A stretch of 64,000 bases of DNA, taken from NCBI GenBank assembly GCA_016200265.1, contig JACQFE010000006.1, positions 4,112-68,111 on the forward strand. Direction: 5' to 3'. This DNA is from Planctomycetota bacterium. GTDB taxonomy: Bacteria; Planctomycetota; Phycisphaerae; UBA1845. Both the position numbers and the translations under genes were made by a program. Position 1 is the stretch's first letter, and every line of letters starts with the position of its first letter. This document shows positions 3,753 to 29,382 of the stretch, piece by piece. The notes under the pieces were generated by a model. The model was not told the origin of the DNA. It searched no databases and saw nothing but the letters and a program-made list of their open reading frames with translations.

Positions 3753-5462
3753 ATGCGGCACACGACAAGGTGGTTGTCGAAAGTTTGTCTGTGCATCATC
3801 TCCAGCGCGATTGAGTTCGGCTGCGGCACGAGTATTCCCACACCAACAATCAGCGATACGCAATTGGGCGACCCAAATACGAGTCCTGTCGATCGGCCTC
3901 ACGTGGTTTTGCACGAACAGACCGTCAACGAAGGGGACACCGTAGTCCTCCAGACTGATGAAATTCCTTCAAGTACCGGTTCATCAAAGGTCAATGGTTG
4001 GACGCAAATTTACGGACCGACCGTCGAGATCACCAATCAGCTCTCTCGAAATTTGAGCTTTGTTGCGCCCCAGGTGACCGCCGCTTCTCTGCTGGTCTTT
4101 CGGTTCTCCAGCATCTCCGGAGATCGTTACGACGTAAATTTGTACGTCATCCACGTCATGAATGCCGTTGCACCTTCGGATTCGTCGCTATGTGGAGGAG
4201 TCGTTTGTGAAACAGGAACGCAATGCAATAAAGCGACTGGGGCCTGCCAGGCGACATTCGGGGTCTGCGAAAATGTGATCTGCTCGCAGGGTGAGACTTG
4301 CGATGACTTGACGGGCAACTGCGTTGCGGCATCGCCATGCAGCGGAGTGACGTGCTCTTCGAATCAACATTGCAATCCAGCCACGGGGTCATGCGAATCA
4401 ACATGCGTCGGTGTAACCTGTCCGGCAGGAACGCAGTTGAATGCCGATCATTGCACCTGTGAGGCCATTTCGCTCTGCAAGTCAGTGACCTGCCCCGCGG
4501 GTCAGAACTGCGATCCGGCCACAGGTAGTTGCGTAACAGTTGACCCTTGCCAAAATGTTTCGTGTTCCGGTGGTTCCATTTGCGACGCTCAGACAGGCCA
4601 GTGCGTTTCCACGGGTGGGTGCGCAGACCCGCCGACAGGGGCTGTGTTCACCGTCACCGACAGTTCGGTAGGAACGAATCAATACGACATCAATCCGAAC
4701 TTCTGGATCGAATTCAGCATGGATTTGGATCCGCAGACGTTTTCCCCGGACATCCTTTCGGTGCAACAGGCCGGTCCGGACAACGCCTGGAGTACCGCCG
4801 ACGATGTGGTTGTAAGCACGACAGCACAGCTTAACTGCTGCCGGCGGATCGCAGTTTCCCTTGCACCGCAGGATGGCGCTCTGGCTGCCGGGCGCCGGTA
4901 TCGCGTCCAGATATCACCCGGATGCCTGAAGGCGACGGCCAGCAACGGCGTCACGCACGGACTCGATGGCGAATTCAGCGGCATGTTTCCGACTGGGAAC
5001 GGCGCATTCGGAGGCGTGTTCGTGCAGGAGTTCATCGGGGTGGCTCCTGGGCCCTATTCCGGCGATCTTGTCTGCAATGAAGAAACCCGCGATATTCTGG
5101 GTCGAGTGACTCAGGAAACCAAACACTATAATGACACCATCACGGTCGATCCGGCCGGAATGCTCGTACTCGCCGGGCAGCCGGTGCAGGTGGGCAGTAC
5201 CATGAATCCTCCATTTACGGGCATTCAACTCGAGATGACTGTCACAAGTGTGACACCACAGCGTACCGGGATCCATGTCACGTATGATGTGTCCGGCTTG
5301 AAGGACAATTACCAATTTACCGGCCCGCAAGAAGAGACTTACATCTTTGTCGGCGATGGGACGATCTTGCATGCCGGCACGTCTTCATTCAATGTAAACG
5401 CAGGCAGTGGCGCTGTCGTTGCCACGGTCCACCGTACGTGCAGCGGAACGCTCAAGCAATGA
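3753..5462 (+). CDS. Secreted or lipid-anchored protein with Ig/PKD-like domain, Cys-rich CxxVxC repeats and a Big_5-like domain
   Basis: ATG 3753 follows GGAGA; signal-like N-terminus ending FGCG; about six CxxVxC..G..C...TG.C repeats; IEFSMDLDP...LAAGRRYRVQI is Ig-like. Stop overlaps the next ATG (ATGA). Confidence 0.7.
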   Translation: MRHTTRWLSKVCLCIISSAIEFGCGTSIPTPTISDTQLGDPNTSPVDRPHVVLHEQTVNEGDTVVLQTDEIPSSTGSSKVNGWTQIYGPTVEITNQLSRNLSFVAPQVTAASLLVFRFSSISGDRYDVNLYVIHVMNAVAPSDSSLCGGVVCETGTQCNKATGACQATFGVCENVICSQGETCDDLTGNCVAASPCSGVTCSSNQHCNPATGSCESTCVGVTCPAGTQLNADHCTCEAISLCKSVTCPAGQNCDPATGSCVTVDPCQNVSCSGGSICDAQTGQCVSTGGCADPPTGAVFTVTDSSVGTNQYDINPNFWIEFSMDLDPQTFSPDILSVQQAGPDNAWSTADDVVVSTTAQLNCCRRIAVSLAPQDGALAAGRRYRVQISPGCLKATASNGVTHGLDGEFSGMFPTGNGAFGGVFVQEFIGVAPGPYSGDLVCNEETRDILGRVTQETKHYNDTITVDPAGMLVLAGQPVQVGSTMNPPFTGIQLEMTVTSVTPQRTGIHVTYDVSGLKDNYQFTGPQEETYIFVGDGTILHAGTSSFNVNAGSGAVVATVHRTCSGTLKQ

Positions 5463-6487
5463 ATCACGGGCTCATTGAGGCCGAGATTCGCGCCATTGCG
5501 GCGGCGCTCCCCAAGGGCGTTGTCACCAATGATGATCTTGATCGCGAACATCCGGAATGGAATCTTGAGCTGATCGCGCGTCGACTCGGCGTCGTGCGCC
5601 GGCACATCGCCCGCTCCGATGAAACTGCGTTGGATCTTGGTGATCAGGCATGTCGATCGCTCTTTGAATCCCATCCCAATCTTCGTCAGGACGTCGACAC
5701 GCTGATTTTTTGCACCCAGAGCGCCGACTACATTCTTCCTCCGAACGCCACGGTGCTTCATGGTCGCTTGGAGTTGCCCCAACGCGTCGCGGCATTCGAT
5801 ATCAATCTGGCGTGTTCCGGGTTTGTGTACGCCCTGCACATTGCCCGATCGATGATTCGATGCGGGGCGGCGCAACACATACTCTTGGTCGCCGGAGACA
5901 CGTATTCGAAGTACATCAACAAGTCCGATCGGTCGGCGCGCGTGCTGTTCGGAGACGGCGCGGCGGCGACGTGGATCGCGCCGTCGGCGAACGGACTGCG
6001 GATCGGGGCCGCAATGTGTGAAACCTCCGGACGCGACTTCGAGACATTCATCATACCCGCCGGCGGTTGTCGGCGTGCACGATCCAATGAGACATTGATT
6101 GAGCATACGGACGAATCTGGAAACGTCCGCTGTTCGGAGAACATCCACATGGCCGGGCGCGGACTGCTTGACTTCATGTCCTCGACGATTCCGCGACACG
6201 TGGAGGAGTTCCTGCGCCGCAATGAATTACGAAAGGACGATATTGACTTGTACGTGTTCCATCAGGCCAGCGGCGTTGTGCTCGAATCATTGCAATGCGC
6301 GCTGGGGCTGGAACCAGATCGCGTATACAGAAACTTGCGCGATATCGGCAACACAGTGTCCGCCTCAATTCCCATCGCCCTGCGCGATGCACAGTCGGAC
6401 CATCGGATGTCCAGAGGAGGTCGCGTGCTGCTTTGCGGTTTTGGCGTCGGACTTTCCTGGGGTAGCGTTCTACTTGACGTGCTCTGA
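5459..6487 (+). CDS. fabH: Ketoacyl-ACP synthase III (FabH-like), cluster-associated
   Basis: DINLACSGF (catalytic Cys), FHQAS (His), IGNTVSASIP (Asn), LFGDGAAA and GFGVGLSW. Confidence 0.9.
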   Translation: MNHGLIEAEIRAIAAALPKGVVTNDDLDREHPEWNLELIARRLGVVRRHIARSDETALDLGDQACRSLFESHPNLRQDVDTLIFCTQSADYILPPNATVLHGRLELPQRVAAFDINLACSGFVYALHIARSMIRCGAAQHILLVAGDTYSKYINKSDRSARVLFGDGAAATWIAPSANGLRIGAAMCETSGRDFETFIIPAGGCRRARSNETLIEHTDESGNVRCSENIHMAGRGLLDFMSSTIPRHVEEFLRRNELRKDDIDLYVFHQASGVVLESLQCALGLEPDRVYRNLRDIGNTVSASIPIALRDAQSDHRMSRGGRVLLCGFGVGLSWGSVLLDVL

Positions 6488-6538
6488 ATGCCCAGATCGG
6501 ATCGGGCATCAACTTGCGTGTTCGAAAACCTGGTGTGA

Positions 6539-7606
6539 ATGATCGAGATTCGCACGTACGACGGCGACGGCGAAGACGTTGCGGAGCTGACCGCCCGGGC
6601 GTGGCGGGCCGCTTACGGCGGCGTGAGCTGGTGCCCGTACTGGAGCGCGGAGTCCATTCGCTGGCAACTCCTGTCGGCGTGTCCGGATGATCGCGATTTC
6701 CTGGTGGCTGCATACAACGGGTGCCGGCTGGTCGGTTGCTTCTTTGCGAAACGGACGGCTTTTCAAATCAGCAGCCGGCAAGTCCTCGGCACGATCGGGA
6801 GTTGGTTTACAGTCGATCCCGAGGCGGGCTCGCCGCGTCTGGGGATGGCCATTGTCGAGGAGCTTCGCAGACGGCATGTTGAGTACGGGGTTGCGTTTCT
6901 TCTGGGCTATGTCAACGGTGGCCCGAACACGCCCGCCAATAAGTTCTGGAAATGCTTTGCAAAGCTCTACCCTGACCAGATCCGCTTTGTTCGAAAAATC
7001 GGATACTGGATCCGAATCCTGAACCCCTCGTCGCTTCGACGAAAATGCGTTCACTGGTTCGAGCGGTTCATCGTGGGCGTGCATGGAATTCTCCCGTTGC
7101 TGGGAGCGCCGCCAAGGAGGGCGCCTGAAGTTCGGGATTATGTCCACGGCGACTCGGATCGTTGTGGGCGTTTGGTTGGAGAATTAAGTAAGAACGCTGA
7201 CCTGGCGATGACGTGGTCGAGCGATCGGATCGCCACGCAACTGGATTGGAACGGCTTTCCTCGTACGCTAGTTCTGGATCACAACGGCGAGACTTTTGGA
7301 ATCGTTAATTATCATCCCTTCGGGCTGTTGGGGAAAGAAGTAGTGAGCACCGGACTCATTGACCTTCTCGGATGCGGGAGCGGCTCCGCCCATGATCAAC
7401 GCCGGTTGTTACGCAGCGCTATTGCACAGATGGATGCGAACGGCTTGGACATCGCGATGGCCTTGCGAACGAGCATGTTTCCGCCTCGCGTGATGCTGCC
7501 TTGCGGCTTCTGGCCCATGCCGCAGTCCGAGCATCTTGTCTATGCGTTTCCGCAACCGGGTCTGGACCTTCCGCCGGCGGATCGGCCCTTGATTCTCTTC
7601 CGGTAA
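6539..7606 (+). CDS. Putative tandem-GNAT-fold N-acyltransferase
   Basis: Two GNAT-like halves (IRTYDG...RLVGCFFA...WFTVDPE...LGMAIVEEL; VRDYVHGD...RRLLRSAI...GF). Fold assigned by pattern only. Confidence 0.55.
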   Translation: MIEIRTYDGDGEDVAELTARAWRAAYGGVSWCPYWSAESIRWQLLSACPDDRDFLVAAYNGCRLVGCFFAKRTAFQISSRQVLGTIGSWFTVDPEAGSPRLGMAIVEELRRRHVEYGVAFLLGYVNGGPNTPANKFWKCFAKLYPDQIRFVRKIGYWIRILNPSSLRRKCVHWFERFIVGVHGILPLLGAPPRRAPEVRDYVHGDSDRCGRLVGELSKNADLAMTWSSDRIATQLDWNGFPRTLVLDHNGETFGIVNYHPFGLLGKEVVSTGLIDLLGCGSGSAHDQRRLLRSAIAQMDANGLDIAMALRTSMFPPRVMLPCGFWPMPQSEHLVYAFPQPGLDLPPADRPLILFR

Positions 7607-7615
7607 AGAGCCAGT

Positions 7616-10570
7616 TCACTCCACTGAAGGTCCAGTTGCAATTGTCTCCGCCGATGCTCTGGGATCGCCGTGATGTGCAAATTCTCCGAGGTCCCATTCG
7701 TCGCCTTCGAGTACGACGTCAAATCCGTGTTTTCGGCCGAAGCCCTCGAGTTTTGCGATGGTCTCAAGTTGAAGAGGTCCGTACAAACCAGGTAGATCGT
7801 AGGCGCGCTCGAACGAGAGCAAGATCGTTTCAGCCACACAGGCCGGAACGTGCCGATCGTGCCCCCCGCGAAGTGCACGCACGTCGGCCTCACCGGCGAC
7901 CTCCACGGTTCCGCCGTCGATGAGCATTACGTCGGGCCGCGTCTTTCGAATGTCGCGGCAGACGTTGAACGGCCTGGACACATCGCAGACGACGGCCCCC
8001 CGCTTGAGATGACGCTCGAAGATCAGCACATCGACGGAATTGGTTGCGCTGATCACGATATCGGCCTGGGGCAGCTTTGCGTCGAAATCGGTCGTCAAGG
8101 AAAGCCGGTCGTCCGAAACCAGCAAGTTCTTCAAAACGTCGCGGCGACCACCGGCCTTTTCCGCAAGCCCAGCCAGATGCGCCGCAAGCGTTTGATCACC
8201 AGACGTTCGGCCTTGGTGCCGGGCAGCCAGCGCATGTTCGGCCGCCTCACACGCGATATCCAATAACTTCGACACGCTTCGCTCGGGCAACAACGGGTTG
8301 CCGACGAGAATCATTCGGCTCACGCTTTCCGCCATCAGCAGCGCGGCGGCGCGGCTGATGATCCCGCCGGCGCCGACGATGGCGACGGTGGCGTCTTCCA
8401 GCTTCACGCCTCGCTGACGGCATCCGAGTTCGACAGCCCGCTTGGCCATGACCACAGTGTAGGAATTCCCGTTCGTGAGTCTGGGGAGGTTCGGGCCGGT
8501 AAGGGACATGCCGCCCTGGGTAACAATTGAAGTAAACCCACCGAGTCCGACGATTTCCGCGCCGCGTGCCTTGGCGATCTCCACGGCGCGCAGCACTTCG
8601 GCCAAGGCCGTTTCAGCGGGAAGATGCATAAGCTCCTCAGCGGTGTGTGGAATCAGGATCAGTTCGCCGACGGCACCGCCTCCGGCGGGAGATCGAACCG
8701 AGATGGCGCCGACGGGAAACGGATCGACGAAATGGCTGATGCGACGGTGCAGCTCGTCGAGTTGCTTTTCGTTGAAGTCCGAGAACGACGGGTCGAAATC
8801 GGCATAGTCGCGGCTGGATAGCAGGTGAACGAGGAACGCGAAGCGGGTTCCTGAAGTGTCAACATGGCCTCGATGATACTCGCGATGCGAGGCTCTTAGA
8901 GAATCCGATTTCGCCACTGTGGCATGACATGGCACATCCTCACTTTGTCCGAGCACCATGTATCCGAACAGGGCACCGGCGTCCCCCTTTTGGAGCAATT
9001 CAAGCGTCCGATCGAGTGCGTGGATAAGCGCCGACCATTCCTCGCGTCCGGCAATCAGGGGCGGTTCGATTCGCAACACGGGTGCGCCGGCAAAAGCGGG
9101 AGCGACTCGCACACGCTCGACGTTGAGCAGGTAGCCGACGACGATTTGCAGGAGCAGTTGCTGCTCGGCCAGATGGACCAGCAGATCGGAGCCCAGGCCG
9201 TCCTCGTCGAATGCGAATTCCAAACCGAGCATGTATCCGCGTCCGCGGATTTCCGAGATGAGCCTAGGATAACGGGATTTCAAGTCTTCGAGTTGACGTT
9301 TAAGTGCTTCGCCGTTTTCCGCTATGTGCCGCACGAGCGCGCGGTCTTGCGCCTCCAACATATTCAGCACAGCGACTCCGGCGCAACAAGCGAGGGTGTT
9401 CCCGGCGAATGTGGAGGAATGCCAAAGCTCAAAATAGATGTTGTAGACCGCACTGGTGTACACACAAGCACCGATGGGCATCAGCCCGCCGCCCAATGCC
9501 TTGGCAAGAACGAGAATGTCCGGATTCACGCCGGCGTGCTCGCACGCGAACATTGTCCCGGTGCGACCGAGTCCGGTCTGCACTTCGTCTGCGATCAGCA
9601 AGACGCCGACATCGCTGCACAGTCGCTTTGCACCGTTCAAGTATCCGCTCGGGGCTTCGACGATTCCGCCCTCGCCCTGAATCGGCTCTACAAGAAATGC
9701 CGCGTAGTAGCCTGGGCGGCCCGCGAGGGCGGCTCGGAGGGCTTCGAGGTCGCCGTAAGGCACACGATCGAATCCCGGCACGGGTGCACCGAAATTCCGT
9801 TGAAACATCTCTCGTCCCGTGGCCGACATGGATCCGAGGGTTAGCCCGTGGAACGCATTTTCTGTGGATAGAACTCCGTTTCGCTTGGTGGCCGATCGGG
9901 CCAGCTTCAGCGCCACCTCGACGGCTTCAGTTCCACTATTGGCAAACGTGACATGCCGCATGTCTCCCGGCGCAATACGAACCAGCCGCTCGGCAAGTTC
10001 GCCGGCCGCGTCCATCAGTCCGGGATTCACAAAACTGGGAGTGAGCCGGTCTCTTGCTTCCAAAAGTGCGTCCCAGATTTCCGGAGGGTTGAATCCGAAA
10101 GGGAGGGCGCCGTATTGGGCGATGAGGTCCACATACCGATTGCCTATTTCATCATACAGATAGCAGCGCTCGCCGCGCACGAAGCGTTTGTCCAATCCAA
10201 GCTGTGAAAAAAGGAAGTACTTGTACGGCCCCACATACTGTCCGTAAGGATGAGCGTGCCGTGGAAGATCGTCGATGGAAGGTGGCGCAAGTCTCTCATT
10301 ACCCGTTAGTGAAATTTTTCGCTCGACGGGACGTGCACGCGCCGTCGGAGCGGCCATGACGGCGTGATCGCTCTGTTCGCTCGACCGCGAACTTTCCCGA
10401 GGGGTGTCTTCCTGGAGCAACTTCAGCAGGTAGTCTTTGTGCCGGCGCAGCTCGTCGCGCAGGCCGTCATCCAGGACTCCCTTGGGAGCGCTGAAGCGGA
10501 GGCGATCGCCATCGGCCCAAATCTCCACGCCTCGCCGTTTCAAGTCCGTGAGGAATGCGGCAGTCGTCAA
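7616..10570 (-). CDS. TubC_N docking domain + class III aminotransferase + acyl-ACP-reductase-like domain fusion (TamH-like)
   Basis: N-terminal LKRRGVEIWADGDRLRFSAPKGVL. Transaminase motifs NSGTEAVE, FHGLT, EPIQGEGG, DEVQTG and LAKALGGG (PLP Lys). Reductase motifs FAFLVH, VGLGGFTSIV, TNGNSYT, VAIVGAGG, CDVSRP and PACVAET. Confidence 0.85.
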   Translation of the reverse strand: MTTAAFLTDLKRRGVEIWADGDRLRFSAPKGVLDDGLRDELRRHKDYLLKLLQEDTPRESSRSSEQSDHAVMAAPTARARPVERKISLTGNERLAPPSIDDLPRHAHPYGQYVGPYKYFLFSQLGLDKRFVRGERCYLYDEIGNRYVDLIAQYGALPFGFNPPEIWDALLEARDRLTPSFVNPGLMDAAGELAERLVRIAPGDMRHVTFANSGTEAVEVALKLARSATKRNGVLSTENAFHGLTLGSMSATGREMFQRNFGAPVPGFDRVPYGDLEALRAALAGRPGYYAAFLVEPIQGEGGIVEAPSGYLNGAKRLCSDVGVLLIADEVQTGLGRTGTMFACEHAGVNPDILVLAKALGGGLMPIGACVYTSAVYNIYFELWHSSTFAGNTLACCAGVAVLNMLEAQDRALVRHIAENGEALKRQLEDLKSRYPRLISEIRGRGYMLGLEFAFDEDGLGSDLLVHLAEQQLLLQIVVGYLLNVERVRVAPAFAGAPVLRIEPPLIAGREEWSALIHALDRTLELLQKGDAGALFGYMVLGQSEDVPCHATVAKSDSLRASHREYHRGHVDTSGTRFAFLVHLLSSRDYADFDPSFSDFNEKQLDELHRRISHFVDPFPVGAISVRSPAGGGAVGELILIPHTAEELMHLPAETALAEVLRAVEIAKARGAEIVGLGGFTSIVTQGGMSLTGPNLPRLTNGNSYTVVMAKRAVELGCRQRGVKLEDATVAIVGAGGIISRAAALLMAESVSRMILVGNPLLPERSVSKLLDIACEAAEHALAARHQGRTSGDQTLAAHLAGLAEKAGGRRDVLKNLLVSDDRLSLTTDFDAKLPQADIVISATNSVDVLIFERHLKRGAVVCDVSRPFNVCRDIRKTRPDVMLIDGGTVEVAGEADVRALRGGHDRHVPACVAETILLSFERAYDLPGLYGPLQLETIAKLEGFGRKHGFDVVLEGDEWDLGEFAHHGDPRASAETIATGPSVE

Positions 10571-14682: not shown

Positions 14683-14793
14683 GCTTCTTGCCCTCAGCCA
14701 TGAACTCTTCGAAAACGACTAGCATCTCTCCGGTGCGAAACCGTGAATTTTTCGCAGCGAATGTACTCGTCGGCGATCCACATACGGTCACGT

Positions 14794-16242: not shown

Positions 16243-16287
16243 GATCCCACCTCCCAGCGCAATCTCCGGTCGTTTGCCCAGGTTCCC

Positions 16288-17586: not shown

Positions 17587-17707
17587 TCGACAATCCCAGT
17601 TTGAACGGCAATCGACCTTTCGTCACCGGCCCAAGAGGAACTAACTTATACAGCGTCAACCACTTGATCGTCAAACGATAATTGGCGGATGTGCGAATGG
17701 AACGTGC

Positions 17708-17736
17708 TTGACTTTTCCGACGAATTTCACCAAAAT
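17708..17736 (+). promoter_or_regulatory. Possible sigma70 promoter for the PKS in the divergent intergenic region
   Basis: TTGACT-N17-CAAAAT. Confidence 0.35.
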
Positions 17737-17914
17737 CTCGCCTCGCTCAGGCGACGTGGACCATATTCCCATCCTTGAGACTCAGGGGCCAAGTTCTGGA
17801 GCGCGCTGTCAATTCCCTGCGTCCGGACTTTGCGCATGGCGACCTGGGTCGCCAGCATGACGTGGGTCAGTCCACATTCGCGTTTTGTGAGTTAAACCTC
17901 GGAGGCCGTGATTC

Positions 17915-20900: not shown

Positions 20901-23900
20901 ACGGTTCATGGGAGCGCCACGTTGTCGGCAAGCTGTATCGCAATTCGGATTCCGCGCGGCCAGGATCCCGACCCTTGGCCGCGATCCGTGAACGCTGCAC
21001 GTCGGCCATTTCATCCGCCGATTGTTACCGGCTCTTCGACGCACGTGGATTGCGATACGGAACGCAATTTCGTGGCATTCGATCCCTTTGGGCCGGCAAG
21101 GATGAGGCATTTGCGAGAATTGAACTGGATTGGATGCGAAATGATTTTGCTCATGAATTCCTCGCCTATCCTGGAATCGTCGATTCGGCCTTCCAGGTGC
21201 TCATGGGAGTTTTGCTCAATGAAACCGACTCGGGCAGGATCAGGGACGGGCTCTTCCTCCCCAGCCGCATTGCGAAAATCATCTACCACGGCCCGCCTCC
21301 GAGTCGTCTTTGGTGTCATGCACGTTTGATCAGCTTGACCGAGCAGCGACTGATCGGCGACATCGAGTTGATGGATGACCAAGGGAACGTCGCCATGGAG
21401 ATCCGCGGTTTCCATTGCCAGCACGTGGAACGCTCGGAGACGGCCCTGAGTGGAGGACTGGGACAGTTTCGCTGGGAACGCGATCCTGCGAAGAGGACTT
21501 CCAGCATCCGACGGGCGGACGATTTGCTCACACCGTCTGCAATCGTCACCAAGCTAAAGGCCGTCGGGGGGGTGGATGGCTGGCGAAGTCTTGGCTCTTC
21601 CGCCACCCAATCGATCGAGCTAGCGGAAGCGGTCCGTGCTTACGCCTTTGAGGCCTTCGCCAAAATGGGGTGGCGACCAAGCGTCGGCGAGCGATTCGCC
21701 GATGAGGAACTTGGAAAACGCCTGGGCGTCGTCGGGCAGCATGATCGGCTCTTTCGTCGAATCCTTGTCTCGCTCGCATCGGAAGGATTCCTGCGAGAGA
21801 AAGATGGCGAATGGACTGTGGTTCGAGATTTTCACGCTGCCCCTTCGCATATACTTTGGAAACGCCTGTGGGATCAATTTCCGTCAGAGACCGCGGAACT
21901 GATGCTCATTCGGCGCTGCGGCGAGAGCCTTGATCGTGTGTTGCGCGGTGAAATCGATGGACTGGATCTGATTTTCTCCGGCGGTTCCTCAACGACGGCC
22001 GAACACCTCTACCAGGACTCCCCCAGCTACTTTCAATGCAACCGCATCGTTCAGAAAGCCGTCGCTGCGATCGTGCAAGGACTGCCGGAAGGAAGAACGC
22101 TCCGCATTCTCGAAATCGGCGGTGGAACCGGCGGAATGACGGCGCATCTGCTTCCCGAACTCCCGGTCCGCCGGGCGAAGTATGTGTTTACGGATGTGGG
22201 TCGCACGTTGCTCAGCCAGGCCGAACAACGCTTTGGCCGATTCGCCAACATTGAATTCGCGACACTGGACATCGAGAAAAACCCAATCGACCAGGGTTTC
22301 GAGGCCCACTCTTTTGATCTTGTGCTTGCTTCTGACGTCTTTCACGCGACAGCGGATCTGCGCGGCACGCTGGAGAACGTCAAGCGTCTCCTTGCATCCC
22401 GAGGTCTCCTGATTGTTCTGGAAGGCAAGCTGGCGCCAACGCCGCTTTGGTGCACGCTGATCTTCGGGCTTCTCAAAGGCTGGTGGCTCTTTACGGACAC
22501 AGACCTACGCGGACTCGATCCGTGGATTTCCGCGGAGGCCTGGCAGAATCTTCTCACAACGTCGGGCTTTGATGAAGCAACAGATCTTACCCAGAAACTC
22601 GGAACCGATGAGGCCGTGCACATGGTGGTGGCGGGGCGTGGACCGGCCGTTCCCGATCGTGAGACGCCGGACGCCGCCCGGTCACCAGAGACCAACCTCG
22701 GCGCCTGGTTGGTCTTTTCGGATGAGCGGGGTGTTGCCGCTGATTTGTGCCAACGCTTGCGAGGCGCCGCGCACGAAGTTGTGTGCGTGGTTCGAACCGA
22801 TTCCGGGCGCATTTCCGAAAACGGGACGCTGCGAGCTCGCGGCGTGGCCAAGGAAGACATTCGCTCCGCGTTGGATTTGGCGACCAAATCTGGCTTGGGG
22901 TTGCGCGGGATTGTCCATCTTTGGGCGTTGGATCTGCCATCAGTGCGGGAGGCAGAATCAACGGTGCTGCACGCCGCACGGTCGGATGTGCTGGCAAGCG
23001 TCATGCACTTGATTCAATGTCTTGGAGAGACCGACCCAACGCCTCCGCCACGAATTGTACTCGTCACCAAGGGGGCGGAATCCGTTGGAACGTCGCGGGT
23101 CCAAGTCGAAGTCATGCAATCTCCGCTCTGGGGCTTGGGGCGGGTGGCGATGGTGGAGTATCCCCAGTTTCGATGTCGGCTCGTGGATCTCGAGCCTGGT
23201 GAGTGGAACGTGGCCGGCAGCGGCCAGTTGGCCGATGAGTTGTTCGCCGAAGTCCTGGACGACGGGGCCGAGGAAGAGGTCGCGTGGCGTGGTGGAGTTC
23301 GCCACGTCCATCGTTTCCAGCGGATTTCCATGGAAGAACTCCCACCGACGGAATGGCCAATTTCCAAATGCCGATCACCAATTGAGAGAAGGGTGAATTC
23401 TCCCCAATTGTCAATTGAGAATCGGAAATCGGAAATCTCCCACAGGTCTTACACGGTGGCCCGCCCGGCAGGCGGAAGCCTCGACAATCTCCGTTTGCAT
23501 TCGACCGAGCGGATCGCTCCGCAAGCGGGCCAGGTCGAAATTGAAGTGCGGGCCTGCGGATTGAACTTCAAGGACGTCATGCTGGCCATGGGACTGTTGC
23601 CGGAGGATGCGCTGGAGGGCGGATTCACTGGTCGGACGTTGGGGATGGAATGCACCGGGAAAATTGTCGCGGTGGGAGAGGGGGTTCGAGAATTCCGGGT
23701 GGGTGACGAAGTGATCGCCTGCGGTCCGGGCACCTTGCGATCGCATCTCACGCTCAACGTCATGTACGTGGCCCGAATGCCGCAAGGAATTAGTTTTGAA
23801 GATGGGGCCACGGTGCTCATCGCCTACCTGACCGCGTGGTACGGATTGGTCAAACTCGCCCGACTCCAACCCGGGGAACGTGTGCTCATTCATGCCGCGA

Positions 23901-25732
23901 CCGGAGGTGTCGGGCTGGCCGCGGTCCAACTGGCCCAACACATCGGAGCGGAGATCTTCGCAACCGCGGGAACGGAGGAAAAACGCGATTTGCTGAAAGC
24001 CTTGGGCGTTCCTCATATATTCAACTCTCGAACGCTCAGCTTCGCCGATGAGATTCTGAAACACACCGATGGAATCGGCGTCGATGTGGTTTTGAATTCG
24101 CTCTCGGGCGATGCGATTCCCAAGAGCCTCGCGATTCTTCGTCCTTACGGACGATTCGTCGAGATCGGCAAGCGGGATGTGTATGAAGACAGCAAGGTCG
24201 GCCTTCGACCCTTCCGTCACAACCTGTCGCTGTTCGTGCTGGACATGGACCGGCTCTGCGCCCAGCGGCCGGATGCGGCCGGTGAGGCCTTCAGGGAAGT
24301 AATGAAATTGCTTGCGGATAAAACCCTGCGACCTCTGCCCCATCGCGTATTTCCAGTGGACCGGATTCAGGACGCGTTTCGATACATGGCCCAGGCCCGG
24401 CACATCGGGAAAGTTGTGGTCTCTCTCAAGGATCAACCCATCTCGGTGGCGCAACCTCCGCTGACGTCGATTCGATTCCACAGCGATTGCTCGTACTTGG
24501 TGACCGGAGGATTGGGCGGATTTGGATTAGCGCTGGCGCGCTGGCTGATCGACCACGGCGCTCGACATGTAGCGCTGATGAGCCGAAGACATGACGTTTC
24601 CGATTGTCTGCAGAGCGCACTCAGCGCGATGCGCGAGGAAGGCGTGGAAGTGCGCGTGCTGCGAGGGAATGTCTCCGACGCGCGGGATGTGGGCGAGGTC
24701 CTTGCGGAAATCTCGCGATCCATGCCGCCTCTGCGCGGGATCTTTCATGCGGCGATGGTTTTGGACGACGCCCCCATCAGAGACTTGACCGTCGAACGAT
24801 TCAATATCGCGATGGCGCCGAAGGCCGATGGGGCGTGGAACCTGCATCGCCTCACTCAGGATCTGCCGCTGGATCACTTCGTGCTGTTTTCATCAATGGC
24901 CTCGCAGATCGGAAACGCGGGACAAGCCAACTATGTGGCCGCAAATTCCTTTCTTGACGCTCTCGCAGGGCATCGAAACGCGCTGAATTTGCCCGCACTC
25001 ACCGTCAATTGGGGCGCCCTCTCCGATGTCGGATACGTTGCAGAGAACCCTGGAATCGCCAAGCGATTGGAGGCCAACGGCGTCCGGCCGATGCCCGTCA
25101 GGCAAATGCTCTCAACGCTGGGTGTTCTGATGCAGCGTCGCGCAGTACAAGTCGGAGCCGGCTTGGTTGATTGGACGAAACTTGCGCACACACTGGGCCT
25201 GACAAAATCCCCAAGGTTCGCCCATTTGGTCACGCAAGGGATTGCAACTGAGATCGAAGGGAGTGGCTTCGATCGCGAGGCAATTCTGCGGGCCGACCCA
25301 TCTGAGCGACTCGAGATTCTCCAAAATTATCTGCGTGAGCAACTTGCCCGAGTCCTGGGAACGACACAAAGTCGATTGGACGTCAACCAATCCATCATGA
25401 ATCTCGGCATGGACTCGCTGATGGCCGTCGAAATGAGAAATCGGATCCGCACCGCGTTGGATGTGGACATTCCGCCGACCAAGTTCATGGAGGGAATCAG
25501 TCTGCGAGGGATGGCAGCATTCGTGCTCGATCGCTTGAGCGAGCTTCATGCGTCAAGTTTCAGGAATCGCCCGGACGGTATGAAGACTGCCGAGGCTCCC
25601 GTAAAGTTGATTCACCCTGAGAATGCCAAGGCTGCACACACCGATGCTGTACAACTTCGGGCGATCGGTGACCTCAGCGATCAGGAGGTGAACGACCAAC
25701 TGCAACGTCTCCTTGCGGAAGCCAAGAAATGA
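17915..25732 (+). CDS. Single-module highly reducing type I PKS (KS-AT-DH-cMT-ER-KR-ACP)
   Basis: KS DTACSSS/HGTGT/NLGH; AT GHSLG and VPYHS; DH DHQVEQNVVFP; MT LEIGGGTG; ER IHAATGGVG; KR TGGLGGFG, LDD, YVAAN; ACP GMDSL. No thioesterase or loading module. Confidence 0.95.
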   Translation: MALREPIAIVGIGCRLPGKVSNPESFWRLLYNGVDAISEVPPDRWRWQSFYHSEPGTPGKLYVRRGGFIEGVDLFDAPFFNISRREASWADPQQRQLLEVSYEALEDAGLSLDAIAGTRAAVYVGISTYDYGAMHGRTHERLELDAYTSLGSALCVTANRISYFFDLHGPSLAVDTACSSSLVATHLACQSIWNHEASIALVGGVNVLLQPDGTIGFCQARMLAADGQCKSFDASADGYVRAEGAAVVVLKPLSQALRDEDRIYSLIRGTAVNQDGRTTGITVPSEAAQTAMLQDVYRQADIVPQDVQYVEAHGTGTAVGDPIELHAIGKALGIGRSQDDPCLVGSVKSNLGHPEAASGVVGLIKAALCVFHGQIPPSLHYRNPNPNIPFEELKLQVVRELRSWPKNGHEFRVAGVNSFGFGGTNAHVVLTSQQVESAQHVAPRGSNGRALLVPLSARSSAAVKAAAHSQAAYFADPLRASVELNDIAHTAALRRTHHEFRTTVVAHSVAEFVESARTWADDSAPVESVAPDAAGQLAFVFSGMGPQWWGMGRQLFETEPVFRKTLEQCDAALRTHVSWSLLDELGKDETRSRINETYIAQPAIFAIQMGLSRLWNSWGIRPSAVIGHSLGEVAAACCAEVLNFEDAVALIYHRSRLQQLTSGEGRMLSVAMPFAEIEALVADSDGLVSIAAYNSPESVTISGDATALQQISEGLTAREIFNRFLKVDVPYHSRAMDRLEYELQASLRTLSPRPAAITLISTVTGGKVRGEEMNAEYWWRSMRYPVRFREAIATAARNGHRMSLEISPHPVMSASISESAPGTRVFSSLRRNEPERETMLKSAGQLYSCGFSLNWKAVNGDAGQFISMPRYPWQHERYWHESERGAQERMGIQLYPFLGAKCDSTHSTWVTDLNHHCLDFLDDHQVEQNVVFPAAAYLEMALEAACELFGRPPYEIEGLTFEKVMLLPRDGRPIVQLAFGERASEFGIFSRARTTNGSWERHVVGKLYRNSDSARPGSRPLAAIRERCTSAISSADCYRLFDARGLRYGTQFRGIRSLWAGKDEAFARIELDWMRNDFAHEFLAYPGIVDSAFQVLMGVLLNETDSGRIRDGLFLPSRIAKIIYHGPPPSRLWCHARLISLTEQRLIGDIELMDDQGNVAMEIRGFHCQHVERSETALSGGLGQFRWERDPAKRTSSIRRADDLLTPSAIVTKLKAVGGVDGWRSLGSSATQSIELAEAVRAYAFEAFAKMGWRPSVGERFADEELGKRLGVVGQHDRLFRRILVSLASEGFLREKDGEWTVVRDFHAAPSHILWKRLWDQFPSETAELMLIRRCGESLDRVLRGEIDGLDLIFSGGSSTTAEHLYQDSPSYFQCNRIVQKAVAAIVQGLPEGRTLRILEIGGGTGGMTAHLLPELPVRRAKYVFTDVGRTLLSQAEQRFGRFANIEFATLDIEKNPIDQGFEAHSFDLVLASDVFHATADLRGTLENVKRLLASRGLLIVLEGKLAPTPLWCTLIFGLLKGWWLFTDTDLRGLDPWISAEAWQNLLTTSGFDEATDLTQKLGTDEAVHMVVAGRGPAVPDRETPDAARSPETNLGAWLVFSDERGVAADLCQRLRGAAHEVVCVVRTDSGRISENGTLRARGVAKEDIRSALDLATKSGLGLRGIVHLWALDLPSVREAESTVLHAARSDVLASVMHLIQCLGETDPTPPPRIVLVTKGAESVGTSRVQVEVMQSPLWGLGRVAMVEYPQFRCRLVDLEPGEWNVAGSGQLADELFAEVLDDGAEEEVAWRGGVRHVHRFQRISMEELPPTEWPISKCRSPIERRVNSPQLSIENRKSEISHRSYTVARPAGGSLDNLRLHSTERIAPQAGQVEIEVRACGLNFKDVMLAMGLLPEDALEGGFTGRTLGMECTGKIVAVGEGVREFRVGDEVIACGPGTLRSHLTLNVMYVARMPQGISFEDGATVLIAYLTAWYGLVKLARLQPGERVLIHAATGGVGLAAVQLAQHIGAEIFATAGTEEKRDLLKALGVPHIFNSRTLSFADEILKHTDGIGVDVVLNSLSGDAIPKSLAILRPYGRFVEIGKRDVYEDSKVGLRPFRHNLSLFVLDMDRLCAQRPDAAGEAFREVMKLLADKTLRPLPHRVFPVDRIQDAFRYMAQARHIGKVVVSLKDQPISVAQPPLTSIRFHSDCSYLVTGGLGGFGLALARWLIDHGARHVALMSRRHDVSDCLQSALSAMREEGVEVRVLRGNVSDARDVGEVLAEISRSMPPLRGIFHAAMVLDDAPIRDLTVERFNIAMAPKADGAWNLHRLTQDLPLDHFVLFSSMASQIGNAGQANYVAANSFLDALAGHRNALNLPALTVNWGALSDVGYVAENPGIAKRLEANGVRPMPVRQMLSTLGVLMQRRAVQVGAGLVDWTKLAHTLGLTKSPRFAHLVTQGIATEIEGSGFDREAILRADPSERLEILQNYLREQLARVLGTTQSRLDVNQSIMNLGMDSLMAVEMRNRIRTALDVDIPPTKFMEGISLRGMAAFVLDRLSELHASSFRNRPDGMKTAEAPVKLIHPENAKAAHTDAVQLRAIGDLSDQEVNDQLQRLLAEAKK
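23358..23437. repeat. Imperfect palindromic heptamer-repeat element lying in frame inside the PKS
   Basis: Left arm AATTTCCAAATGCCGATCACCAATTG pairs imperfectly with right arm CAATTGAGAATCGGAAATCGGAAATC. A similar tract is intergenic at 35393-35424. Confidence 0.55.
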
Positions 25733-25771
25733 TGATCCGTCGCGAGAGGCTCGGTCCGGGTGTCGCCGCGG

Positions 25772-26563
25772 TTAGGTTCCTTCCTCACCGATGGCGAATC
25801 TCGTAAGCGCCAACTTGCAGCCCACGTTGTCCGTCGCAATGGCAGCGACGAAACCCGTAATTCCTTCAATTTCCCGGACGAATAGCGTCCTCGTGCATCC
25901 AGTAGTGATTGAGTCCGGCGGCGGCGCGACCAAACCACATCCCGGTTCTGCTGCGTCAATCTCCTTGGTGTCAACGGAGAGGCCCCATCCGAAGGCCTTG
26001 AGACATGCTTCTTTTCGGGTCCAAAGCGACAAGAATTTCCGGTCGCGATCACAATGTGGCGCCTTTTGAAACAACTCATATTCGCGGCGCGCGAGGAATT
26101 CACGGGCCATGCCATCGGCATCAGGAACAGGTCGTATTTGCTCGATGTCGATTCCCACCACACTGCATGCCGACGTGGCCACAAGTGCGACGTCACCCGA
26201 ATGGGAGAGGTTGAAATGCAACTCCTCAAATGGTGACGGCAATTGAGGCTTTCCAAAAGCACCGTACTCGAAGCGCAGTGCTGACGGAGAGGCGCCGATG
26301 CACTTCGCGAGCAGCATCCTTAACGCCGCCCGTGCTACGATGAACCTCCGGCGACCGTGTGGAAACATGAAGCAGGATGACCGCACCCGTTCGTCCGGTG
26401 ACAATACGCTCTCCAACTCCGCGAGCTTGGATTCAGATGCAGACAGCGAGACGCACCAGACAACAACAGGTTGACGTGGTATTGGTGCATGCAAGTCACG
26501 TGCTCTTTCCAGGCCCAGGAGCCCTGCAGGGTTCACTTCCATGCTCGCGGCTTGTGTCGTCAT
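25772..26563 (-). CDS. Sfp-type 4'-phosphopantetheinyl transferase
   Basis: FGKPQL, FNLSHSG, VGIDIE and WTRKEACLKAFG. Confidence 0.93.
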   Translation of the reverse strand: MTTQAASMEVNPAGLLGLERARDLHAPIPRQPVVVWCVSLSASESKLAELESVLSPDERVRSSCFMFPHGRRRFIVARAALRMLLAKCIGASPSALRFEYGAFGKPQLPSPFEELHFNLSHSGDVALVATSACSVVGIDIEQIRPVPDADGMAREFLARREYELFQKAPHCDRDRKFLSLWTRKEACLKAFGWGLSVDTKEIDAAEPGCGLVAPPPDSITTGCTRTLFVREIEGITGFVAAIATDNVGCKLALTRFAIGEEGT

Positions 26564-26981
26564 CGTTGCACCGATGCCGCCTGCATCGCACGATCAACGC
26601 CGAGGCGATGCTGCACCCGCGGTCCGTGCCAACTTCCTGAGGCGTCCAAATCTCTTGTCACGAAGTCCCAACTGTGAAGTATGATTGGCTTTCCCAAATC
26701 ACACAACTGCGTCAATCGGTTGGCGATGGCCACGCCGCTTACCATTTTCCCGTCCCGCTCCAACACGCCAATTTGCGATGACGCCCGGTACTGCATAGAG
26801 TTCCAAGCCATCCAAACGTCGCTTCCGAAGAGTTGATGCCTCCTCCGAGTTGGCAACGCTTTTCGGAGTGTCTGACGTTCTGTTTGGGAATCAGAATCGA
26901 TCGACTTGTCAGGCGCCCGGCAAGACGTTGACCGAAAGCTTGGGCTTGCGATCGGCGTCCGGGGGTTTCGGAGGAAACTGC

Positions 26982-28172
26982 GTGCACTTGAGTGTTGTCT
27001 ATGTGGTTCGGAACCTGACGCGCAACCGTCGCCGCACCGCACTCACCTGCGCCGCTGTGGGTCTTCCGATCATGATTTTTGTTCTGTCAACGGCCGTCAT
27101 CGACGGGATCGGTGCATTCCTGGACAACTCTGGAAAGCAGCTTCGTTTGGTGGTCATGAATCATGGGTCCGTCGTCAATCCACTGCCTTCCGGCTATCGA
27201 TCGAAAATCGAATCCCTCGACCCGACCGGCTCTCGAATCTTGTCCGTTTGCGGCATGCGCTGGATCGGCGGACAGGTGCAAAACGACCCCCGGCCGCTCT
27301 CCACGCTCGCCGTGGACGCCGATACGTTCGTCGCCACTTTTCCTGACCAACAGTTGACGCCCGAGGAAATCGAACAATGGAACCGCAGCCGGCAGTCGAT
27401 TCTGGTTGGCGCGGCCACGGCGGCGGCGTTCGGCTGGAAAACAGGCGATCGAATCACAATTCGCTCATCGATTCCGCCGTACGTGTCAATGGAGTTTCGC
27501 GTGGTTTCAACCGCCTCGCGACCCGGAAAAGACCCCGTCACGATTTTCTGCCGCCGCGACTACCTGGAAGAAGCGATGAAATCGGCCGTGTTTCCTGAAG
27601 GCTGGAATCTGACTGGCAGTGTGTCGTTTTTCTTTGTGCGTTGCACGAGCATGGCCGATCTGGATTACTTTCGGGTCGCCATTGACGAACTCTTTGCACG
27701 CTCTCTCGATCGAACAAAGACCCAGGACGAAAAGACGTTCATGAACGCGTTCATCACTCAATTTCTGGATATGCCGAACAACCTGACGCGGCTCGCGGCA
27801 GTCACCATCATCGTCGCGGTCATCGCCGCCACGAATACGATGAGCATGAATCTTCGGGATCGATTGAGCGAAATCGCGGTCCTGAAGTCCATTGGATTTT
27901 CGGCACCGATTCTCTTCGCGTTCATCCAGGCGGAAAGTCTGTTTCTGTGCCTACTGGGCGGGCTGATCGGCGCGTTAGTCCCCTTCATCGGATTCGGCTA
28001 TACTCCGCTAAAAGAAGTGAGTGTCCCACTGATCCAACATATTGAGATTTCGCTGGGAGTTTGCGTGAAAGCGCAATTCATGGCCCTCGCCGTCGGTGTG
28101 CTCGCCGCAGCCTGGCCCGCGTGGTCCGCGTCACACGCGAAAGTCGTCGCAGCGCTGAGAAAGCTGAATTAA
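26982..28172 (+). CDS. MacB/FtsX-family ABC transporter permease
   Basis: GTG start after GGAGG; RNLTRNRRRT, TMSMNLRDRLSEIAVLKSIGF and C-terminal ALRK. Confidence 0.85.
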   Translation: MHLSVVYVVRNLTRNRRRTALTCAAVGLPIMIFVLSTAVIDGIGAFLDNSGKQLRLVVMNHGSVVNPLPSGYRSKIESLDPTGSRILSVCGMRWIGGQVQNDPRPLSTLAVDADTFVATFPDQQLTPEEIEQWNRSRQSILVGAATAAAFGWKTGDRITIRSSIPPYVSMEFRVVSTASRPGKDPVTIFCRRDYLEEAMKSAVFPEGWNLTGSVSFFFVRCTSMADLDYFRVAIDELFARSLDRTKTQDEKTFMNAFITQFLDMPNNLTRLAAVTIIVAVIAATNTMSMNLRDRLSEIAVLKSIGFSAPILFAFIQAESLFLCLLGGLIGALVPFIGFGYTPLKEVSVPLIQHIEISLGVCVKAQFMALAVGVLAAAWPAWSASHAKVVAALRKLN

Positions 28173-28209
28173 CGGGACGTCCTATGCAGGATTCGCCTGA
28201 GATTCCGAT

Positions 28210-29382
28210 ATGCGACTTCCTCTTTATTACAACTGGCACTGCTTGTGGCGGCAGAAGCTGAACAACCTTCTGACCTTTGTCGTCGTTGCAACAGTCGTGT
28301 TTGTACTTTCCGTGTTGCTCTCTTTCGCCGCGGGCATCCGCGCGTCGTTGGCGGCCACCGGTCTGTCACGAAATGTTCTCGTTCTGAAGCCTGGCGCGAC
28401 GGCGGAAAGCACCAGCCTGATTCTGCTGGATGAGGCCGTCCGTCTGGTCCAATGCCCGGGCATTGCCCGCGACGCGACCGGATCGCCGATGATCAGCCTG
28501 GAACTGTGCGTTCAAACAACGATTCCGCGTCGCGCCGGGGACAAATCGTCGGCCAACGTGGCGATCCGCGGCGTTGATGAGATTGGGCTTGCGGTTCACA
28601 GCGAAGTCCATCTGATTGACGGAAGAATGTTCAAGCCCGGTGCACTGGAAATCATTACCGGGAAAGCCGCGTGCGAACGCTATGCGGACCTGAAGATCGG
28701 CAGCGAGACTCTCCTGGGGCGATCCGGAAACCGTGAATTCAGAGTGGTTGGAATCTTCGAGGCCGGCGGTGGCGCGCTGGAAAACGAACTCTGGGTTCCC
28801 CGGACCATCCTGGAGGATGTATACGGCCGACGGTTTGTGTCGAGCGCTGTGCTGCAACTCCAGCAGCCGAATCTCGCCGACGAGGCAATCCGCTACATCA
28901 AGAGTCCTGCCGTGCAACTTGAGGCCAAGCGCGAGCCGGACTACTACGCGGATTTGTCCACCCGAGTGCAGGAAATGGTTCTCCTCGCATCCATTTTAGT
29001 TGGGGTCATGGCATTTGGTGCGGTGTTTGCGGTGGCCAACACGATGTATGCCGCCGTCGACAGCCGCCAGCGCGAAATCGCCATGTTGCGGACCATCGGC
29101 TTCGAACGATCCGCGATCGTCCTTTCGTTTCTGATCGAATCATTCCTCCTTTGCGCCGTCGCTTGTGCGACGGGACTTGTCGCCAGCATGTTCGTGAACC
29201 GCCCGCGACAGGACTTTCTATCCGATGTCACATGGACGGCGCTTGCGTACCAGTCAAAGTTCACGCTCCAAACGCTCTTCAGCGCGCTCGGCCTTTCTTT
29301 GTTTGTGGGTGTGGTCGGCGGCGCGGCGCCGGCAATTCGAGCCGCAAGAACCAAAATCATCGAAGCATTGCGAAAGGCGTAG
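28210..29382 (+). CDS. MacB/FtsX-family ABC transporter permease
   Basis: NTMYAAVDSRQREIAMLRTIGF and PAIRAARTKIIEALRK. Confidence 0.88.
   Translation: MRLPLYYNWHCLWRQKLNNLLTFVVVATVVFVLSVLLSFAAGIRASLAATGLSRNVLVLKPGATAESTSLILLDEAVRLVQCPGIARDATGSPMISLELCVQTTIPRRAGDKSSANVAIRGVDEIGLAVHSEVHLIDGRMFKPGALEIITGKAACERYADLKIGSETLLGRSGNREFRVVGIFEAGGGALENELWVPRTILEDVYGRRFVSSAVLQLQQPNLADEAIRYIKSPAVQLEAKREPDYYADLSTRVQEMVLLASILVGVMAFGAVFAVANTMYAAVDSRQREIAMLRTIGFERSAIVLSFLIESFLLCAVACATGLVASMFVNRPRQDFLSDVTWTALAYQSKFTLQTLFSALGLSLFVGVVGGAAPAIRAARTKIIEALRKA

Follow-up and report, generated by a model that had tools for sequence, protein, structure and literature searches.

The stretch of DNA analysed here (the window, 64,000 nucleotides) comes from a planctomycete genome assembly of 4.56 Mb in 80 contigs (GCA_016200265.1; Phycisphaerae, UBA1845) and contains a set of ten genes for a hybrid of a polyketide synthase (PKS) and a nonribosomal peptide synthetase (NRPS) (Table 1). 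Genes were called from a listing of open reading frames (ORFs) together with Pfam and NCBIfam models. Besides a highly reducing PKS and a thiazole-type NRPS, they encode an aminotransferase–reductase fusion, a FabH, a stand-alone didomain of a dehydratase and an acyl carrier protein (DH–ACP), a HemN-like radical S-adenosylmethionine (SAM) enzyme, a GNAT-like protein, a phosphopantetheinyl transferase (PPTase) and two FtsX-family permeases. The domains of all ten genes are present and, judged from their sequences, look catalytically intact. An earlier note on this DNA had listed the same components, and every one was recovered with Pfam and NCBIfam, the GNAT-like protein by way of a homologue, the ESM Atlas and a fold search. 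On balance, we lean towards one cluster for a thiazole lipid amide (positions 5438-29382), in which a main line would release an amine, a side branch would supply an acyl group and the GNAT-like protein would ligate the two.

Table 1. Genes of the proposed thiazole lipid amide cluster and the adjoining upstream gene
Feature	Position in window	Strand	Family matches or basis
FabH (KAS III)	5438-6487	+	Pfam ACP_syn_III, ACP_syn_III_C; NCBIfam beta-ketoacyl-ACP synthase 3
N-myristoyltransferase-like double-GNAT acyltransferase, 355 aa; predicted amide synthase	6539-7606	+	predicted fold
TamH-type fusion, 984 aa: TubC_N (beta-hairpin) docking, class III pyridoxal phosphate (PLP) aminotransferase, AAR-like thioester reductase	7616-10570	-	
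NRPS, 1371 aa: Cy-A(Cys)-PCP-Ox; N-terminal helical docking region, C-terminal REEGEI tail	10567-14682	-	
Class C (HemN-like) radical SAM enzyme, Cx7CxxC; predicted C1-transferase/cyclopropanase on ACP-bound acyl	14794-16242	-	
Stand-alone DH-ACP didomain	16288-17586	-	Pfam PKS_DH_N, PS-DH, PP-binding
Single-module highly reducing PKS, 2605 aa: KS-AT-DH-cMT-ER-KR-ACP; C-terminal helical docking tail	17915-25732	+	Pfam
Sfp/HetI-type PPTase	25772-26563	-	Pfam ACPS, AASDHPPT_N; HetI model 7.7e-43, below cut-off
FtsX-family permease 1	26850/27057-28172	+	FtsX 5.5e-10
FtsX-family permease 2, MacB-like periplasmic domain	28210-29382	+	FtsX 1.3e-14, MacB_PCD 3.9e-11
Cys-rich secreted-looking protein, 569-679 aa	3423/3753-5462	+	only weak PKD and M36-tail hits

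The gene set is rare among relatives of the window genome. With the fusion as query, two of 61 genomes gave a match (E<=1e-100): the window genome itself and one of 60 relatives (G047), which belongs to the same taxonomic order and to a different family. G047 carries the full set of ten genes, FabH through to the second FtsX permease, in the same gene order at 43-73% identity, the cluster there running up to the end of one contig and continuing at the start of a second. The identity to the syntenic genes is 73% for FabH, 44% for DH–ACP, 45% for the PPTase and 69% for permease 2. For permease 1 it is 70% across residues 70-438; its ORF is open from a TTG at 26850, and residue 70, where the homology begins, is a possible start codon. 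Phylum-wide, 4 of 401 genomes have a fusion match (E<=1e-120), of which the three besides the window's own show 38-42% identity and have no docking part.

The same genes were also found together in metagenomes. With the radical SAM gene as anchor, a scan gave 80 loci. For a scan with the fusion, the search patterns fell inside the aminotransferase domain, and because of this most of its 80 loci held aminotransferases of a general kind or fusions without the docking part; useful information came from L015, L022, L024 and L025 only. The architecture of the window (family I) is shared by loci L101 and L102, the latter also with the PPTase gene, and by L117 as far as the end of its contig. Family II (L104, L105, L107 and L108) is collinear for PKS, FabH, GNAT, ACP, radical SAM enzyme, NRPS and fusion, and family III comprises L123 and L022. 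In both of these families the NRPS reads Cy-MT-CP-Cy-A-PCP-Ox, with two complete Cy domains (e.g., L108:11355-18503) and one Cys-type A domain, a layout pointing to a variant within the same product family that has a methylated bis-heterocycle. Because the genes co-occur across divergent lineages, with synteny in G047, L101, L102 and L117, they can be treated as one conserved unit, which is what the earlier note would have had to find in other genomes for its cluster to stand.

The PKS begins directly with its KS, without a loading domain. It has the motifs DTACSS, HGTGT, SNLGH and GHSLGE, the DH histidine and DSAFQ, LEIGGGTGG in the C-methyltransferase (cMT) and HAATGGVG in the ER, as well as LDD and the Ser/Tyr/Asn set of the KR; the AT reads VPYH at the usual specificity position. 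In the NRPS, Pfam identifies Condensation, AMP-binding, PP-binding and Nitroreductase domains, and the serine of the peptidyl carrier protein (PCP) is present. The Cy domain is matched best by that of EpoB (7.5e-106), followed by the Cy domains of HMWP2, BmdB and PchE, and keeps FPLTD..AY, NATVFNR and QTPQVWLDHQ. The A-domain code was read by eye as DLYNLSLIWK (from FDLSVYD, VWNTVPA, LLSGDW, GLGGATEASIWS and GKLNR), which by GrsA position numbering is the cysteine code, in agreement with the substrate expected beforehand. The motif contexts of this code are conserved in the window, G047, L101, L102, L104, L105, L107 and L108, and are identical in six related loci. The Ox domain (Nitroreductase, 2.1e-15, residues 1164-1335) is C-terminal in the NRPS.

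Thus, like the modules of EpoB, BmdB, MtaC and BlmIII, the window NRPS combines Cy, a Cys-type A domain, a PCP and an FMN oxidase, and as in EpoA/EpoB the predicted upstream partner of the thiazole module is a PKS. The window module would differ from these known thiazole modules in its release, by reduction and transamination. Its Ox domain stands at the C-terminus after the PCP, an order shared by MtaC and BlmIII.

The protein downstream of the NRPS is a fusion of three parts: TubC_N (7.7e-16, residues 5-54), a class III aminotransferase (Aminotran_3 1.5e-89, residues 131-518) and a C-terminal reductase. The best match of the aminotransferase in the PDB is PigE (4ppm, 1.3e-99), and its Schiff-base lysine K357 (LAKALGGG) does not vary among 11 homologues. 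Over the C-terminal 404 aa, there are matches to the N-domain of PigE (3.7e-19), a cyanobacterial acyl-ACP reductase (AAR; 2.6e-16) and the NCBIfam model AcACP_reductase (7e-23). By these matches, the reductase is of the AAR/TamH type and not an SDR-type R domain. The motif VGAGGII is present, and the cysteine in PACVAET aligns with those of ACFAE (AAR) and GCMAET (PigE), presumably the catalytic residue of AAR. In the description of tambjamine YP1 biosynthesis, TamH combines a transaminase at its N-terminus with an AAR-like reductase at its C-terminus and makes an amine from acyl-ACP but not from acyl-CoA (PMC9594044), and PigE is likewise described as reducing a thioester (PMC8341465). All three proteins thus join a class III PLP transaminase to an AAR-like Cys-dependent thioester reductase, which in the known cases turns a bound acyl thioester into an aldehyde and then into a primary amine. 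The window fusion has the domain order of TamH, the order in PigE (prodigiosin) being the opposite. Unlike TamH, it has an additional N-terminal TubC_N docking domain, and whereas TamH acts on a fatty acyl-ACP, the window fusion would end an NRPS with a predicted thiazole-4-carbonyl-PCP. In addition, seven proteins of ~1550-1600 aa (P0044, P0045, P0057, P0058, P0091, P0116 and P0121) combine AMP-binding, carrier, aminotransferase and AAR-like reductase parts, equivalent to TamA fused to TamH; one of the seven carries an Acidobacteriota name.

The order PKS, NRPS and fusion is supported by the likely docking termini of these proteins. In two metagenome loci, a PKS is directly followed by an aminotransferase–reductase (L015:4566-12613, L024:2043-12515), which would imply amine release straight from the PKS. 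These PKSs end in ...LSDEEVDRLL... or ...LTDEEVDRHL... (in fuller form GLSDEEVDRLLKLML and ELTDEEVDRHLSIL), and the fusions start with LSAQDKRALLAQLL or LTTAQKRALLAEHL (in fuller form LELSAQDKRALLAQLL and ELTTAQKRALLAEHL), a helical N-terminal docking region in place of TubC_N. The L024 fusion shows as two overlapping ORFs and may have a frameshift. In the window, the C-terminus of the PKS reads ...DLSDQEVNDQLQRLL... with the tail DLSDQEVNDQLQRLLAEAKK, which is conserved in G047, L101, L102 and L117, and the N-terminus of the NRPS reads ...LERLSAEQRRLLLADLL... (in fuller form DLERLSAEQRRLLLADLL), which is conserved too. Because these termini resemble the PKS/fusion pairs of L015 and L024, the PKS appears to hand its chain to the NRPS. 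The NRPS in turn would hand it to the fusion, because acidic NRPS tails precede TubC_N fusions (REEGEI in the window and L102, REEGEV in L101, WEEGVV in L108 and EIEEGLI in L025) and because the two genes overlap by 4 nt in the window. The release proposed in the earlier note, from a thiazolyl-PCP to an aldehyde and an amine, fits both the matching docking termini and the TamH precedent, the chemistry being predicted. A thioesterase is missing, as was also noted there: the Pfam calls on the cluster proteins include no Thioesterase domain, and the intergenic gaps are too short for one.

FabH, GNAT, an ACP with or without a DH, and the radical SAM enzyme form a second group of genes. FabH scores 261.7 bits against an NCBIfam cut-off of 249 and has the triad of Cys (ACSG), His (FHQAS) and Asn (GNTVSAS); a second FabH elsewhere in the genome is 30% identical, the cluster FabH being a dedicated paralogue. 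The DH–ACP has its DH histidine (HRLFDVPVLP), DGCLQ (DxxxQ) and the carrier serine (GLDSL). The radical SAM enzyme matches Radical_SAM (3.7e-14), and its best NCBIfam models, the STM4012 family and ChuW/HutW, are both below cut-off; in the window genome, TIGR04107 (ChuW/HutW) gives only sub-threshold hits, to three HemN-like genes. The cysteines of its Cx7CxxC motif (69/77/80) are invariant in 27 homologues, and at the aligned place HemN and NocN have CxxxCxxC. Cx7CxxC is the motif reported as invariant in the Jaw5-type cyclopropanases of jawsamycin and fuelimycin biosynthesis (C68/C76/C79 in Jaw5), where the PKS is described as KS-AT-DH-ACP with a stand-alone KR (PMC13389473). That paper was the only one returned by a literature search on Cx7CxxC in HemN-like enzymes.

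These four genes occur together in families I to III and in two further loci (L120:8846-12749, L106:600-5318). No PKS, Cy-NRPS or aminotransferase–reductase was found in the locus DNA of L120 (10 kb each side) or L106. The L120 cassette adjoins an Old Yellow Enzyme (OYE) ene-reductase; the L106 cassette, which has a diverged DH–ACP at the same position, has as neighbours genes for an adenylating enzyme, an ACP, a second radical SAM enzyme, an EPSP-synthase-like protein and a carbamoyltransferase. The radical SAM sequences were placed in a quick tree (72 rows), where every row from a FabH/GNAT context belongs to a single clade of 17 rows (SH-aLRT 99), within which the window enzyme groups with those of L101 and L102. 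Of the 70 loci whose upstream DNA is long enough, 49 have a carrier-protein hit no more than 450 bp upstream of the radical SAM gene. Fifteen loci extend for 5 kb or more to either side; each has a KS or FabH, while seven have a FabH, seven a GNAT, six a Cy of at least 40% identity and five an aminotransferase. The cassette is thus a portable unit, equipped both to build and to transfer an acyl group, and would probably supply the N-acyl group of the product.

Other members of the radical SAM family occur in other surroundings. Many loci (L145, L158, L131, L160 and others) have KS-AT-DH-ACP, then directly a homologous radical SAM gene with Cx7CxxC, then an adenylation domain, and are, by their layout, jawsamycin-like iterative PKS loci outside Streptomyces. 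A separate clade (L141, L142, L146 and seven further loci) has no upstream carrier and has, directly downstream, a FabF-like KS with ~27% identity to the KS of the window PKS.

The GNAT-like protein itself has no Pfam or NCBIfam hit. Its homologue in L022 matches Acetyltransf_9 (1.8e-8), and the ESM Atlas places the window protein with GNAT clusters (score 0.97). An AF2 model built from nine homologues (pLDDT 87.4, pTM 0.86) was compared with the PDB by Foldseek, and the best folds were N-myristoyltransferases (NMTs) over the full length (E 8.5e-21, TM 0.77, 370 columns); the NMTs matched are those of P. vivax, human, Candida and Leishmania, at 12-16% sequence identity. The family is small, with 587 representatives at E<=0.001 among 1.84 billion, and among those listed with a length of 330-400 aa, 95 of 123 have Arg as their last residue. 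The C-terminal carboxylate has a catalytic role in NMT. The eukaryotic enzyme has the same two-lobed GNAT fold in ~350-400 residues and N-acylates a primary H2N-CH2- group, whereas the window protein is encoded in a bacterial secondary-metabolite cluster. Jaw2 and GdvG are described as GNATs which join ACP-bound polyketides to amines (bioRxiv 10.64898/2026.04.15.718676). When a complex of the GNAT with the cassette ACP was predicted, one of the controls equalled it in score. The modelled fold points to an NMT-fold acyltransferase, likely an amide synthase.

Together, these features allow a pathway to be proposed in which every chemical step, the chain length, the iteration of the PKS and the choice of acyl group by the GNAT are inferred. 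The PKS, possibly acting iteratively, would make a saturated alpha-methyl-branched acyl-ACP, and its C-terminal helix would dock on the N-terminal helix of the NRPS. Cy would condense the chain with PCP-bound cysteine and cyclise the product, which Ox would aromatise to a 2-alkylthiazole-4-carbonyl-S-PCP. The acidic tail of the NRPS would recruit TubC_N of the fusion, whose AAR-like reductase would free the thioester as an aldehyde and whose aminotransferase would convert this to a (2-alkylthiazol-4-yl)methylamine, replacing a thioesterase. In parallel, FabH, DH–ACP and the radical SAM enzyme would build a second acyl-ACP with one SAM-derived carbon, most likely as a cyclopropane on an enoyl-ACP, as proposed for Jaw5, and the NMT-like GNAT would acylate the primary amine with this group. 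The PPTase would prime the three carrier domains, and the FtsX pair may export or place the lipid. An amide made by the GNAT was already part of the earlier note and is kept here; FabH, DH–ACP and the radical SAM enzyme, which it had left unplaced, are now grouped with the GNAT as one cassette.

The side branch resembles jawsamycin and fuelimycin biosynthesis (the iterative PKS Jaw4, the cyclopropanase Jaw5, the KR Jaw6 and the GNAT Jaw2), where a Cx7CxxC HemN-like enzyme likewise accompanies a DH and an ACP and a GNAT, to which the window GNAT can be likened, joins an ACP-bound acyl group to an amine made by the pathway. In contrast to that system, FabH would condense in the window instead of KS-AT, a stand-alone KR is missing and the GNAT is NMT-like.

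Several observations weigh against the proposed pathway. In the main line, the Cy signature DxxxxDxxS reads SLLILDAWS in the window, and its first Asp, as found in Cy domains of the EpoB/BmdB type, is replaced by Ser or Asn in four of four family-I members; it is present in families II and III. AAR-type reductases have been characterised on fatty acyl-ACPs, not on heteroaryl-carbonyl-PCPs, and the docking argument rests on the likeness of termini. In the side branch, Pfam finds no KR gene for FabH and DH–ACP in 5438-29382, and the enoyl-ACP substrate would therefore depend on a trans-acting KR; moreover, the ACP of families II and III comes without a DH. The assignment of cyclopropanation draws on the shared Cx7CxxC motif and on context, with Jaw5 compared by its reported motif, and in the quick tree the cassette clade lies apart from the rows adjoining KS-AT-DH-ACP genes, the jawsamycin-like layout. 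Finally, no ABC ATPase gene adjoins the FtsX pair in the window (26850-29382) or in G047 (L099:15264-17661).

Of the alternatives, the one that survives best is a linear pathway, in which the cassette would make a small, possibly cyclopropyl starter to prime the PKS and the GNAT would cap the amine with an acyl-CoA from primary metabolism. A PKS without a loading domain, in a cluster without a FAAL, would suit such priming, and the DH–ACP and PKS genes are divergently transcribed neighbours. NMT, the closest fold to the GNAT, moreover takes acyl-CoA rather than acyl-ACP. We nevertheless regard this pathway as rather doubtful. The cassette occurs without a PKS in the locus DNA of L120 (10 kb each side) and L106 and therefore works where there is none to prime, docking elements are absent from the DH–ACP and from the N-terminus of the PKS, and the GNAT always lies inside the cassette beside FabH and ACP.

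GNAT domains initiate some PKS lines, as in CurA, and the window gene adjoins FabH and an ACP, so that a GNAT which forms no amide, either a chain initiator of this type (loading or decarboxylating on the ACP) or a self-resistance acetyltransferase, also has to be considered. Such a role seems improbable given the full-length match to NMT, a two-lobed fold for N-acylation of amines. A homologue in L024 lies near a PKS and aminotransferase–reductase pair without FabH or radical SAM genes, and with a non-amide GNAT the cassette and the amine would both be left without a consumer.

A similarly low probability, if anything a shade lower, is given to a radical SAM enzyme that methylates C5 of the thiazole instead of cyclopropanating an acyl-ACP. 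TbtI, a class C radical SAM enzyme, is described as doing so (PMC10114718), and in all three families the radical SAM gene lies directly upstream of the thiazole-forming NRPS. Its company across the family is of another kind, however: an ACP with a KS or FabH, one or other of the last two in 15 of the 15 well-flanked loci against six of 15 for a Cy of at least 40% identity, with no RiPP genes (peptides of ribosomal origin that carry post-translational modifications) and, in the locus DNA of the cassette-clade members L106 and L120, no Cy-NRPS. The motif argues in the same direction, Cx7CxxC being that reported for Jaw5-type enzymes, whereas NocN, a relative among thiopeptide enzymes, has CxxxCxxC. 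Two separate products, with the PKS chain released by the fusion as a fatty amine (as the coupling of the same kind of PKS directly to an aminotransferase–reductase in L024 and L015 would allow) and the NRPS product released otherwise, are very improbable, since the L015/L024 fusions carry the helical docking region whereas in the window this region is on the NRPS and the fusion has TubC_N, and since the NRPS has no other release domain and its gene overlaps that of the fusion.

The boundaries of the conserved unit are 5438 and 29382. The earlier note had started the cluster at 3753, with the gene for the Cys-rich secreted-looking protein. This protein has a hydrophobic N-terminus past the Met at 3753 and a long Cys-rich repeat run (..V(T/I)C..G..C...TG.C..), and its gene was rejected as a cluster member because G047 has no homologue beside the cluster; the start was moved to FabH accordingly. 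None of the four proteins flanking the cluster in the window was found in the 67.8 kb of G047 examined. The upstream flank, with an M28 peptidase besides the Cys-rich protein, is unrelated to the cluster, as is the downstream flank, with a cohesin-domain protein, an ArsR regulator, an SRPBCC protein, DUF1579 and UvrA. Of the 120 UvrA homologues listed, the eight that bear an organism name all belong to Planctomycetes, Phycisphaerae or Phycisphaerales (60-67% identity), in keeping with the planctomycete label. The cohesin-domain protein (29544-30881, - strand, 445 aa, two cohesin-domain stretches) follows directly after the cluster and is not conserved in G047. An ORF in the divergent intergenic region between the PPTase and FtsX genes (26560-27042, - strand, 160 aa) was treated as a non-gene, with no family hit and no counterpart in G047.

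No characterised cluster with this gene set was found in the literature searched, and the earlier note had not recognised one either. Each enzyme is of a known kind: TamH/PigE, the EpoB-type thiazole module, class C radical SAM enzymes, GNAT/NMT and highly reducing PKSs. The combinations are another matter, as the same literature held no description of a TamH-type release with a docking domain on a thiazole-forming NRPS, of a FabH/DH–ACP partner for a Cx7CxxC radical SAM enzyme or of an NMT-fold amide synthase in such a cluster. The closest analogy for the product is curacin A, also a lipid with a Cys-derived five-membered S,N-heterocycle, possibly like the window product in a methylcyclopropyl group, whose PKS-NRPS hybrid likewise does not end in classical hydrolysis. 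Its release proceeds by sulfotransfer and decarboxylation. Its cyclopropane comes from an HCS/halogenase cassette, and its ring is a thiazoline, unlike the proposed thiazole.

The cluster thus unites things that have been studied separately: a TamH-like amine release wired by docking domains, a Jaw5-like radical SAM enzyme with FabH and DH–ACP, and a bacterial NMT-fold enzyme as the probable amide synthase. Tentatively, the FabH, GNAT, ACP and radical SAM genes may be an undescribed portable "acyl-cap" cassette, which would assemble an acyl-ACP with a cyclopropane or another C1 modification and join it to amines made by different pathways, here to the (2-alkylthiazol-4-yl)methylamine from a docked TamH-type release. 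If true, cyclopropyl-acyl thiazole lipid amides would be a new product class and the docked fusion a new module for chain release from NRPSs. Once confirmed, the release module would be a transplantable source of amines for NRPS and PKS engineering, and the cassette a compact one for unusual acyl caps. To our knowledge, few planctomycete metabolites have been linked to genes, the literature search having returned only reviews and surveys, and confirmation of the pathway would provide the first product for a cluster family found in several uncultured lineages.

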